This document shows positions 28,448-31,626 of a DNA stretch of 64,000 bases, piece by piece. How positions within the stretch are numbered: the stretch's first letter is position 1; each line of letters opens with the position of its first letter. Under the pieces are notes generated by a model. That model did not search any database. It saw nothing but the letters and a program-made list of their open reading frames with translations, and had not been told where the DNA came from. The translations under genes and the position numbers were made by a program. The DNA is taken from IMG/VR virus record IMGVR_UViG_3300033067_002581, positions 90,908-154,907 of that record. One strand, 5' to 3'. The DNA comes from a virus (lineage: Duplodnaviria; Caudoviricetes).

Positions 28448-28628
28448 GTAGAGCCGAGCTTGTCGCGATCACTAGCTCGTGGTTCTCAAAAGATCTGCAT
28501 AGATCAGTGATAAGAACCTGTCGCTGATCATCCGTCAGACCAAACTCTTCAATCTTTCTAGCAAGCTTGTGAACGAACTCACGTTTCAATAACGTCGCGC
28601 TCGTGATATCAGACAGTAGATTTTGCAT
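28392..28628 (-). CDS. Small hypothetical protein
   Basis: 78 aa ORF in operon context. Confidence 0.5.
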   Translation of the reverse strand: MQNLLSDITSATLLKREFVHKLARKIEEFGLTDDQRQVLITDLCRSFENHELVIATSSALRDVFGDTARVGRDDENQG

Positions 28629-29070
28629 ATGTTGTCTCGATCTTAAAAAGCGTTGAACTGAAGATACGAAGAAATTTCACAACCTCTTCAGATCCAACTC
28701 TTTCTCTTTTTAGAATCACGAAGCCACCCCACAGCTCATGATCTATGATGTTACGCGCGTGCTGCCAGGTAGAGACATCTAACTCATACCCGCTTAGCAG
28801 CGTCACGAGTCTCTCTGGCATCGAGAGTTTGATCTCTTCGATCGTCTGCATCGCGCCTGTCAGCTCTGATCTTGGGATGATCTCCGATTTGCATATGTCT
28901 GTTACGCGATGAGTTATGCCACAGTTTGGACACTCGGCATATGAGACATCAACAACTCCATCTCTCAAAAGAGAGCAGACCAAAAACATAAATGTTTTTG
29001 GTGATTTACTGCTCTTGTTTTGTGAGAGAATGCACCGACATGACACCGCGTGTCGCTGGCTGGTTATCAT
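28609..29070 (-). CDS. Hypothetical protein with putative Zn-binding cysteines
   Basis: CRC...CPNCG..H...C. Confidence 0.6.
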   Translation of the reverse strand: MITSQRHAVSCRCILSQNKSSKSPKTFMFLVCSLLRDGVVDVSYAECPNCGITHRVTDICKSEIIPRSELTGAMQTIEEIKLSMPERLVTLLSGYELDVSTWQHARNIIDHELWGGFVILKRERVGSEEVVKFLRIFSSTLFKIETTYAKSTV

Positions 29071-29400: not shown

Positions 29401-30216
29401 TTGCAGAACAATGACACAGTGAGACTCCCTCTGCTTGAGGCTATCGATGCCGAGCAGATGAATAGAGCGCTCAAAGCGCTCTCATTTATGAGAAAAATCG
29501 ATTTCTCAGCGATACCAGCGATTAGTGATGCGATCAAGTCGTCTGTTGACGATCTAAACAACAGCCTGACAAAAGATAGCGGAATCATAAAAAACGCTTC
29601 TGACGTCGTAAGTCGAGCTTTTCAAGCGCTTAAGGCTCGATCAACAGCGCCTCTGAAGACGCCGATAGGCCGCGCGATCGACATAGCGACAACGATCTCA
29701 AACGGGTTTGGCGCCATGCCAGGCATCATCGACGCAAACGTGCAGGATCCCGGCGCCGCAGCTGATAAAACGCTGACTGACGCCGTCACAGGTCGAGCTG
29801 ACGCAGTACAAAGCTTGATAAAAAAAGCGTTTTCTGGTGAGAACGTAAATAGCGAACGTGTCGCTGATGATATGATGCATATCAAGCTAAGCGTGATCGC
29901 TGATCTGACAAAGAAGATAAGGGCTGGCTCTGGAGCTAGAGACGCATTGGGTCTGATCGATAAGGCTCTCAAAGCTAAACAGACGGGTGCATCAAAACCT
30001 GAAGAGCCAAAGCACACCACGCCAAGCAAGCAGACAACGCCGACAAAACCAACGACTGGTGCGACGACGTCAAAAACTGTTCGTGATGAAAATCTCGCTG
30101 CGTTAAAACGTATACAGAGATCATCTGGTCTTGATCAGGCAACGTTCTCTAAAGCGTTAAAAGCGATCATTGACGGTGGTTACTCTCTATCAAAGAAACC
30201 AGCCGCTAGATCGTAG
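29401..30216 (+). CDS. Hypothetical Ala/Lys/Thr-rich protein in inverted orientation
   Basis: 271 aa ORF with TTPSK/TTPTK linker; only plus-strand gene in this block. Confidence 0.6.
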   Translation: MQNNDTVRLPLLEAIDAEQMNRALKALSFMRKIDFSAIPAISDAIKSSVDDLNNSLTKDSGIIKNASDVVSRAFQALKARSTAPLKTPIGRAIDIATTISNGFGAMPGIIDANVQDPGAAADKTLTDAVTGRADAVQSLIKKAFSGENVNSERVADDMMHIKLSVIADLTKKIRAGSGARDALGLIDKALKAKQTGASKPEEPKHTTPSKQTTPTKPTTGATTSKTVRDENLAALKRIQRSSGLDQATFSKALKAIIDGGYSLSKKPAARS

Positions 30217-31229
30217 GCCCCCGCTGGGTGTAACTCGCCGTCTGACGTCTCAACTACTCCATGTCGCGCAGCATCATCAAGCGTAATAAGAACTCTCTCT
30301 GTTTCACGCATTCTTAGGTGCGAAAACGCCGATGTGCGAAAGCGAACGTGTACTACGCCACCGAGCGACGTCGCTCGATCTTCAGCGATGATCGAGTTTA
30401 TGTGATCAGCGCTATCACGAAGCTGCGAGGCTGCGCGATCTCGACGCTGTAACGCGACATCGCTAACGCTCTGTATCGTGACGATCCTGTCGCTAACCGT
30501 TACTTTCCGCGCTGACACGTCTGCGTACATCACTGATGCGATTGTCATATTATCACTGATACCGATCCCGAGCATCGCGGCAACGTCTCCAAGAGAGTTC
30601 ACTGTCTCAAGATCTAAGTGAAATTCCAATACGCTAACGTTGATCTTGTGAAGATCGCAGTTTTTCTGAAGAGTTGTGCGAACGTCATCTGTGAGACCAC
30701 GACACATTATGAGTGTCGGGACCTGATCGAGCGCCGTCGTCAGCAGGCGATCTATCTCTGATATCGTCTCAATCGTCCCATCGATCGCGACGGCTCTCAC
30801 AGGATTCATCTCACGCACACCACATGAGCTCGACGCCTTTACCGACCCGCCAGATATGAATTCAATGCTCTGCATGTCACTATCAGATTCAGACAAGATG
30901 ATCCTCGCGCCTCGCATGTATGATGCAGAAAAACATAGCAGCGCTATCGATCTGATCACGTCAGTTTCTGGAATCATTGAGATCAGTCTGAACGCAAGAG
31001 ACCGCGTGAGACTGTGATGCTGTTTAACGTAATGACCCGCTCTAAGCGAGCGAAGAGCGTGAGCGTAGCTGGGGTTATCAGTTGCTAGCAAATCAGCTAG
31101 TTGGTACTGTGTCCATCCGCGAGAAGTTCTGACACGTAGTTGTAGATCGCTCTTGCGATCAGACCCAAAAAGCTTCCCGAAAACGTCACGCCGATCCAGC
31201 TCAGTATTTTCGAGACATTCGCTTGCCAT
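30180..31229 (-). CDS. Truncated GroEL/Cpn60-like protein (intermediate + apical domains); start probably near 31091
   Basis: Collinear with GroEL: AVAIDGTIETISEIDRLL, PTLIMCRGLTDDVRTTLQKN, SLGDVAAMLG, ARKVTVS, EDRATSLGGVVHV, TLDDAARHGVV; no GDGTTT. Confidence 0.72.
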   Translation of the reverse strand: MASECLENTELDRRDVFGKLFGSDRKSDLQLRVRTSRGWTQYQLADLLATDNPSYAHALRSLRAGHYVKQHHSLTRSLAFRLISMIPETDVIRSIALLCFSASYMRGARIILSESDSDMQSIEFISGGSVKASSSCGVREMNPVRAVAIDGTIETISEIDRLLTTALDQVPTLIMCRGLTDDVRTTLQKNCDLHKINVSVLEFHLDLETVNSLGDVAAMLGIGISDNMTIASVMYADVSARKVTVSDRIVTIQSVSDVALQRRDRAASQLRDSADHINSIIAEDRATSLGGVVHVRFRTSAFSHLRMRETERVLITLDDAARHGVVETSDGELHPAGAYDLAAGFFDRE

Positions 31230-31462
31230 TGCTTGATCTCTTCAGTCTGCTTCACAAGCGTGGCAATGTTCTCTCCTTTTTTTGCTGTGTCCGAAACCAC
31301 GTGTTCAAGAGCCTTGTCTATGAACTCCTGTTTCGTGCGTAGCGCGATCAGCGATTTCTCTAATTCTGTTAAAGAGTCATCTGTCTCCTTGACCTCAGCC
31401 TCGATCTTATTGATCTCTATCTCCATAGTGGAGATTCTTTGTCTTGTCTGTGTATCTGGCAT
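31097..31462 (-). CDS. Coiled-coil protein with C-terminal transmembrane helix (XhlA/holin-like)
   Basis: Heptad-rich N-terminus, hydrophobic ILSWIGVTFSGSFLGLIARAIY. Confidence 0.5.
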   Translation of the reverse strand: MPDTQTRQRISTMEIEINKIEAEVKETDDSLTELEKSLIALRTKQEFIDKALEHVVSDTAKKGENIATLVKQTEEIKQWQANVSKILSWIGVTFSGSFLGLIARAIYNYVSELLADGHSTN

Positions 31463-31475
31463 CTTCTATTCTCTA

Positions 31476-31551
31476 GATCTGATCTGTTCTGATCTGTTAA
31501 TACAGCTAAATCAGCTGATCTGATCTAAATGGATCGATCGCGCGACACGCG
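31476..31551. repeat. GATC-dense divergent intergenic element with tandem TCTGATCTGT
   Basis: 7 GATC in 31476-31539, tandem TCTGATCTGT x2 (31478-31497), CTAAAT x2, then CGCGACACGCG. Confidence 0.6.
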
Positions 31552-31626
31552 AGAATCAATTTTGCGATTCTGCATCGTTTGTTCTGTGATAGAATCACAA
31601 ACGCACGCTTAATTCAAGGACACCAA

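Follow-up and report, generated by a model that had tools for sequence, protein, structure and literature searches.

To our knowledge, every characterised chaperonin, whether cellular or viral, is a full-length ring-forming ATPase, and ATP-independent apical fragments are known to us only as laboratory constructs. Isolated apical fragments of GroEL (residues 191–345 and 191–376), the so-called minichaperones, are said to have shown chaperone activity without ATP in the 1996 work of Zahn et al., and minichaperone activity depends on the hydrophobic binding groove. T4-type phages rely on host GroEL for capsid folding, and T4 gp23 already requires the enlarged cage of gp31. Phage-encoded GroEL homologs have also been characterised, namely gp146 of Pseudomonas phage EL, gp246 of OBP and gp228 of Bacillus phage AR9, all of them ring-forming ATPases of 511–609 residues that need no cofactor and whose phages have no co-chaperonin gene (PMC7185714, PMC9598537). 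The survey of viral chaperonins by Marine et al. 2017 covered only sequences spanning GroEL residues 8–514, that is, full-length ones (PMC5649160). Here we describe a gene in a 64,000-nucleotide stretch of phage DNA (hereafter the window; positions 90,908–154,907 of the IMG/VR virus record IMGVR_UViG_3300033067_002581), which lies within the minus-strand open reading frame (ORF) 30180–31229. Its product is a pseudo-chaperonin, derived from GroEL and retaining the apical and intermediate domains but none of the ATPase machinery. The source record is 154.9 kb long and is estimated to be 42% complete. Its major capsid protein is of the T4 Gp23 type (E = 5e-60); the phage is therefore T4-type.

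Homology to GroEL and domain content

The resemblance to GroEL is invisible to routine annotation, because the protein taken singly has no significant match in Pfam, PHROGs or the PDB sequence set. The Pfam model for chaperonins (PF00118, Cpn60_TCP1) did not match it even at E ≤ 10, and matched none of 59 relatives at E ≤ 0.01. A word-indexed homolog search returned a single 97% identical fragment, and neither this protein nor a typical member of its family had a tblastn match among 50,697 deposited phages. By phmmer against 1.84 billion representative sequences, we recovered 347 relatives at E ≤ 1e-3. The nearest members (E 1e-49 to 1e-10) are 334–356 residues long and 31–39% identical to the window protein, and most others are 370–480 residues long. 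One apparent relative, the 1192-residue P0016, reached E = 2.7e-10 through 11 weak repeat matches; it consists of 54-residue tandem repeats and C-terminal Big_2 domains, is a false positive and is to be left out of the family counts.

Profiles brought out the relationship. A profile of the 59-sequence family alignment (A1) matched GroEL structures in the PDB at E = 9.4e-33, covering GroEL residues ~50–430, and the best 60 of its 68 matches were all chaperonins; a profile of the six-sequence close subfamily alone (A2) reached GroEL at E = 4.6e-7, and all 31 of its matches were chaperonins. The hidden Markov model (HMM) from A1 scores the window ORF at E = 5.6e-69, that ORF being one of the 59 sequences from which the model was built. 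PHROG 5725 ('chaperonin groEL', 540 positions) was matched by 49 of the 59 family members, over positions ~97–432 only, and not by the window protein itself. An earlier note on this DNA had proposed, from the letters alone, that the ORF follows GroEL motif by motif. Alignment of E. coli GroEL to the family HMM with hmmalign recovered the proposed order in full, with all seven motif pairs in register (protein/GroEL): GARIILSES/GVITVEDG, QSIEFISG/ELDVVEG, IDGTIETISEIDRLL/ADKKISNIREMLPVL, PTLIMCRG../PLLIIAED.., SLGDVAAMLG/MLQDIATLTG, EDRATSLGGVVHV/QERVAKLAGGVAVI and DAARHGVV/AAVEEGVV. The ORF product is confirmed as a genuine group I chaperonin (GroEL) homolog that is detectable at profile level only.

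The fold tells the same story. An AlphaFold2 (AF2) model built with A1 had a mean predicted local distance difference test score (pLDDT) of 87.3 and a predicted template modelling score of 0.81. The structural match to the GroEL apical domain, which the earlier note had named as a check, was found by two routes. Foldseek returned GroEL/Hsp60 chains only, at E ~4e-15, and VIA-align placed the full-length chaperonin gp146 of phage EL first (Z 16.5). Second came 1kid, the apical domain of GroEL in isolation, with a Z of 15.7 and a root-mean-square deviation (rmsd) of 3.1 Å over 173 residues, superposing model residues 100–292 on GroEL 184–375. Chloroplast, Plasmodium, OBP-phage and group II chaperonins took the next ranks; full-length chaperonins scored Z 12.8–16.5 against the model and unrelated folds fell below Z 6.7. 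Both engineered minichaperone structures, 1kid and 1jon, are among the best matches. Like the window protein they present a free apical domain without an ATPase; the window protein differs from them in being natural, in adding an intermediate domain and in not conserving the hydrophobic groove.

The HMM alignment pairs residue 65 of the 349-residue ORF with GroEL ~129, residue 107 with G173 and the C-terminus with GroEL ~430. The protein thus comprises GroEL ~129–430, with the intermediate and apical domains and small equatorial remnants. The N-terminal half of the intermediate domain, with helices F and G, is encoded at 30933–31037 (minus strand; residues ~65–99, GroEL ~129–183 by hmmalign), where the AF2 model has helices at 76–84 and 90–106. 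The apical domain, including the equivalents of helices H and I and their polar, remodelled groove, occupies 30354–30932 (minus; residues ~100–292, GroEL 184–375 by VIA-align to 1kid). The C-terminal half of the intermediate domain, equivalent to helix M, and a short terminal helix follow at 30183–30353 (minus; residues 293–349, GroEL ~376–430 by hmmalign). The chain stops where the C-terminal equatorial half of GroEL would start. At the other end, two short helices precede the intermediate domain. They carry the sequence NPSY, a degenerate form of the family motif AExxxPGxF, which sits at the place of the GroEL phosphate loop AGDGTTT. A complete equatorial domain, in GroEL residues 6–133 and 409–523, is absent from the protein.

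The extent of the truncation varies within the family. A typical member, the 404-residue P0010 (AF2 pLDDT 94.1), keeps the whole N-terminal equatorial segment as a long helix, a β-hairpin and three more helices; its apical domain superposes on 1kid with Z 23.0 and an rmsd of 2.4 Å, and its chain ends shortly after helix M. In the window subfamily, the degenerate NPSY and ~20 residues ahead of it stand in place of that N-terminal segment. The whole family therefore lacks the C-terminal equatorial half, and the window subfamily has also lost most of the N-terminal half. Ring contacts in GroEL are made by helix A and by the stem-loop hairpin; because this subfamily has neither, it appears unlikely to assemble a GroEL-type ring.

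The family profile scores E. coli GroEL at 102 bits and the full-length chaperonins resident in related phage genomes at 73–79 bits, which indicates that the truncated gene is an old lineage. A recent duplication of the resident full-length chaperonin is unsupported for the same reason. At identities of 12–17%, a tree would be unreliable.

Loss of the ATP site and remodelling of the substrate groove

We compared 108 family sequences at those positions whose role in GroEL is known. At positions 86–89 the family reads P-G-S/G-F, D52 is replaced by T or S, the catalytic D398 by Y, R or other residues, and positions 414–416 are not glycine; residues 479–495 do not exist. The window protein has NPSY at the phosphate-loop site, R for D398 and T-S-D for the GGG of 414–416, and nowhere the sequence GDGTTT. 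Because the protein has neither the phosphate loop nor Asp398, and has lost the GGG loop together with the C-terminal equatorial half, the sequence excludes ATP binding and hydrolysis in the manner of GroEL. The proposal that apical and intermediate domains occur here without an ATPase equatorial domain is thereby upheld. By contrast, the structural core is kept: D224, N265 and D291 are present in 108 of 108 sequences, R368 in 107 and G410 in 97, and the window protein has them as D150, N190, D215, R285 and G324. Measured against group I GroEL/Cpn60 (PF00118), then, the protein shares homology, the apical and intermediate folds, colinearity and these core residues. It differs in its missing equatorial half, ATP-site loops and catalytic aspartate, in a helix H/I groove that has been largely replaced, and in a score below the Pfam threshold.

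The groove itself is remodelled. In GroEL, hydrophobic substrates and GroES are bound through Y199, Y203, F204, L234, L237, L259, V263 and V264, and the window protein does not have this hydrophobic set. Positions 234, 237, 259, 263 and 264, which are L, L, L, V and V in GroEL, read D, L, R, Q and K, and the loop that bears Y199 is deleted, as it is in 92 of the 108 sequences. Across the family, position 234 is H in 61 sequences, N in 25 and D in 17, and position 263 is K, R or A; position 237 is L or F in all 108. Members of the close subfamily have D or N at 234 and R, K or Q at 259. A polar and charged groove of this kind argues against promiscuous hydrophobic binding as in minichaperones, and against docking of the GroES mobile loop. 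Conservation of a polar pattern would rather suggest a specific ligand.

A conserved gene family and its setting

The truncation is a property of the family and not of this one gene. We examined 56 loci, made up of 49 IMG/VR contigs, six metagenome loci and the window, and found an intact family ORF of 349–503 residues in each of the 56, none of them full-length. Between the window and the related locus L005, the region encoding residues 106–349 differs at a fraction of 0.32–0.44 of second codon positions and 0.69–0.71 of third positions, a coding signature. Purifying selection acts on the gene, which is fixed and syntenic in a large clade of uncultured T4-type large phages. In source databases its relatives are unnamed or called 'hypothetical protein', with one exception named 'chaperonin GroEL' (JGI). 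In the ESM Atlas, the nearest clusters consist of hypothetical proteins of 396 residues from viruses, and significant matches in BFVD are full-length viral chaperonins only, the truncated family being absent there. In a literature check that was not exhaustive, we found no account of a truncated viral GroEL family.

Using the Pfam Cpn60 model, we searched ten records that carry the family for full-length chaperonins. The 340-kb genome G001 (99% complete) encodes a separate one as a 554-residue open frame (551 residues from the first start codon; E = 1.2e-75), and others are present in the 305-kb genome G002, which has terminal repeats and is 100% complete, and in G003 (56% complete). Since both complete genomes encode a separate full-length Cpn60, the truncated protein is there a paralog beside a full chaperonin. 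This distinguishes the two proteins of these phages, the full-length one being of the phrog_5725 type, and it tells, together with G003, against the truncated protein being a stand-alone substitute for a chaperonin. Two of the three resident chaperonins (L056, L058) keep GDGTTT and GGG. The third, in G002 (L057:211-2856:+), is 881 residues long and has a LAGLIDADG/Hom_end homing-endonuclease segment at residues ~306–385; the insertion lies between Cpn60 profile positions 62 and 63, adjoining the GDGTTT ATP loop, and looks like an intein in a phage GroEL. Of the two complete genomes, one thus has an intact GDGTTT loop, and in the other the loop region is interrupted by this intein-like insertion.

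As in EL, OBP and AR9, a co-chaperonin was not detectable: neither Cpn10 nor a T4 gp31-type gene (phrog_931, the profile identified from T4 gp31) was found in the window's own record or in G001–G004. The major capsid protein of this clade is much bigger than T4 gp23. It measures 635–652 residues, owing its size to a large insertion that falls between positions ~80 and ~120 of Pfam Gp23. Gp23-type proteins of 638–652 residues with an internal insertion were found in four of the five relatives searched (G001, G002, G004 and G005), and the window's own copy (Pfam Gp23), which has the insertion too, lies on the minus strand at 1–1323 and continues upstream of the window. The T4 late-promoter consensus TATAAATA occurs nowhere in the 64-kb window; to judge from the sequence, the late transcription signals of this T4-type phage must differ from those of T4.

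The mechanically called ORF at 30180–31229 (minus, 349 residues) is present in the window as the earlier note described it; its full-length translation is not borne out. Codons 1–44 (31098–31229), within the 5′ part of the ORF at 31092–31229, run out of frame over the 3′ end of an upstream gene at 31097–31462 (minus), which encodes a 121-residue protein with a coiled coil and a hydrophobic C-terminal helix and is also 121 residues long in L005. The two frames overlap by 133 nt. In a comparison of this overlap between the window and L005, 28 of 42 differences fall at third codon positions of the upstream frame, equivalent to first positions of the GroEL-like frame, and only three at third positions of the GroEL-like frame (fraction differing 0.07). 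Because this third-position bias follows the upstream frame, the overlap encodes the upstream protein, which is identical to its L005 counterpart at 31 of 44 residues in this C-terminal stretch and shows the same third-position substitution bias. The pLDDT of the AF2 model also falls below 50 at ORF residues 1–10 and 24–34. Codons 1–44 are therefore probably not translated in the GroEL-like frame.

Conservation within the subfamily runs from an NP(G/S)(F/Y)..AL motif (residues 51–59) onward and includes helices F and G (residues 73–103). The sole ATG, GTG or TTG between codon 45 and this motif is a TTG at codon 47 (position 31091), 5 nt past the stop codon of the upstream gene. Translation likely starts there, giving a probable coding sequence of 30180–31091 (minus; stop codon 30182–30180) and a product of ~303 residues, residues 47–349 of the ORF; ATG codons at 30977 or 30917 are possible alternatives. 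The 5-nt spacing suggests that the upstream gene and the GroEL-like gene are translationally coupled.

The gene is flanked in the window by a minus-strand block of large unannotated proteins, which have no Pfam or PHROG matches, and by a plus-strand island of glycosyltransferase and sugar-nucleotide genes. Its most constant neighbour, in 53 of the 56 loci, is a gene of a 157-residue Zn-ribbon family ~2.2 kb downstream on the same strand; in the window this is a 153-residue Zn-ribbon-type protein gene at 28609–29070 (minus). Residues H7, C11, C13, C47, C50 and H54 of this family are invariant (H, CxC, CxxC, H), and it has no relative in Pfam or the PDB. An 82-residue gene comes next in 48 loci. 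At least 18 loci have a convergent gene of 270–375 residues that runs into the 3′ end of the GroEL-like gene. The window copy (29401–30216, plus, 271 residues) overlaps by 37 nt and has neither a Pfam match nor a significant PDB profile match (best E = 0.02). This convergent gene is the only plus-strand gene within the minus-strand block and contains a low-complexity stretch rich in T, P and K. A small same-strand gene directly upstream recurs in 27 loci, and a glycosyltransferase (GT)-like gene of ~644 residues lies divergently upstream in 35. The window has this family synteny, with a 644-residue GT-like gene, the convergent gene and the Zn-ribbon gene. In most relatives the family gene sits among ClpP-like, helicase, sigma region 4 and PhoH genes. 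Three to four copies of CAGATCAG occur within ~60 nt in the divergent intergenic region at 31463–31578, which separates the small upstream gene from the GT-like gene; they may mark a regulatory site.

A split gene, with the missing equatorial half supplied in trans, was considered and is rejected at sequence level. The profiles of both the Zn-ribbon neighbour and the convergent gene lack chaperonin similarity, and a six-frame PF00118 search of the whole 155-kb record found no Cpn60 fragment.

Function of the truncated protein

The homology and the domain architecture are solid, and from them we infer a function in binding. We judge it somewhat probable, with a confidence a little better than even, that the protein serves the folding or assembly of phage proteins as a binding module without enzymatic activity, recognising a particular partner by its remodelled polar apical surface. 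Such a module would bind without turnover of ATP; its apical surface, conserved and largely polar or charged, would recognise a specific partner, the likeliest candidates being a client protein of the phage and the chaperonin that the phage itself encodes. A dedicated client holdase would be one form of the same proposal. Several observations weigh against it. In typical family members the hydrophobic groove persists in part (L237, V264 and, in about half of them, a hydrophobic residue at 259), and they may bind non-native protein in a general way to some extent. A full-length chaperonin was found in only three of the ten records and not in the window's own 155-kb record (42% complete), nor in G004 (53% complete) or five fragments (27–38% complete), absences that are uninformative because those records are incomplete. 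The conserved synteny, finally, may reflect shared ancestry without functional linkage.

How far the apical domain has departed from that of GroEL bears on two of the alternatives. A stand-alone, ATP-independent holdase, working like the engineered minichaperones by binding exposed hydrophobic segments and suppressing aggregation, would gain from the preserved apical fold (Z 15.7 against 1kid for this protein and 23.0 for the typical member) and from the retention of L237 in 99 and V264 in 69 of the 108 sequences. We nevertheless regard it as unlikely, and so take issue with the earlier note, which had offered it: all five groove positions of the window protein read D-L-R-Q-K, the subfamily keeps polar or charged residues at 234 and 259, the Y199 loop is gone from most of the family, and a generic holdase needs no conserved polar surface. 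A modulator or decoy of host GroEL/GroES, for example one that sequesters host GroES or diverts clients, seems to us very unlikely. T4-type phages do depend on host GroEL in capsid folding, and the apical domain is the GroES-binding domain of GroEL; however, the residues that contact the GroES mobile loop (L234, L237, V264, N265 and neighbours) are only partly kept, with D here in place of L234, so that GroES binding, also raised earlier, is unlikely given the family's H/N/D at 234 and K/R/A at 263. Without an equatorial domain the protein cannot join a host ring, and related phages bring a chaperonin of their own. That the gene is merely a decaying fragment of a full-length phage GroEL, the outcome under which the earlier note would have withdrawn its proposal, might be suggested by its being shorter than GroEL and lacking a Pfam match. 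It is effectively refuted by the truncation common to hundreds of relatives (347 sequences, and 56 of 56 loci), by the coding substitution pattern, the invariant core residues and the conserved synteny, and by AF2 models that are confident for both this protein (pLDDT 87) and the typical member (94).

The remaining alternatives turn on the genomic company of the gene. As a cofactor or adaptor of the phage's GroES-less full-length chaperonin, the protein would deliver or hold the ~640-residue Gp23-type capsid protein, or regulate the ring. Its co-occurrence with full-length Cpn60 in both complete genomes, the lack of a detectable Cpn10 or gp31 in the five records searched, and a capsid protein larger than T4 gp23, which itself already needs the enlarged gp31 cage, all speak for this. 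It would resemble T4 gp31 and GroES in being a phage-encoded accessory to chaperonin-assisted folding of a Gp23-type capsid protein, with a fold unrelated to theirs. We still give this proposal a low probability: the two genes lie far apart on G001 (~16–34 kb versus ~182 kb), the resident chaperonins score no better against the family profile than E. coli GroEL does, and the characterised chaperonins of EL, OBP and AR9 need no such cofactor (PMC7185714, PMC9598537). Its stricter form, in which the truncated protein is an obligate second component of that chaperonin, as client adaptor or lid-like partner, and folds the ~640-residue capsid protein, is more doubtful still; if true, it would allow a capsid protein too large for the closed GroEL–GroES or GroEL–gp31 cage to fold.

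Comparable doubt attaches to an exapted scaffold unrelated to protein folding. The chaperonin-like domain of PIKfyve/Fab1, an interaction module derived from a chaperonin, is among the structural matches, weakly (7k2v, Z 6.7 and 7.4), and is likewise an apical/intermediate module reused with no ATPase equatorial domain attached; it is of group II chaperonin origin, forms part of a large eukaryotic kinase and evolved independently. The genes that adjoin the family gene in most relatives serve replication and transcription, which fits such a scaffold as well. No data, though, suggest a specific alternative function, and since the gene occurs together with a chaperonin and with a T4-type capsid protein, folding or assembly is the more economical account of its role. 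The same neighbours, ClpP-like, helicase, sigma and PhoH genes, do not suit a co-opted virion protein, which had also been proposed and which nothing supports. Overall, the interpretation in the earlier note is partly supported: its account of the homology and truncation stands, and the functions that it listed are less well supported.

A binding module with a dedicated partner remains our preferred reading of a family that in nature has dispensed with the ATP site and with at least half of the equatorial domain, and that comprises at least 347 sequence clusters at 50% identity while being undetected by Pfam and absent from the cultured-phage collection and BFVD. For a widespread orphan phage gene, this provides a concrete annotation. 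The family is a natural experiment in how the intermediate and apical domains can act by themselves, and a candidate accessory factor for the GroES-less chaperonins of phages. Its polar, remodelled groove suggests a dedicated partner, and the identity of that partner would show how an oversized capsid protein folds.

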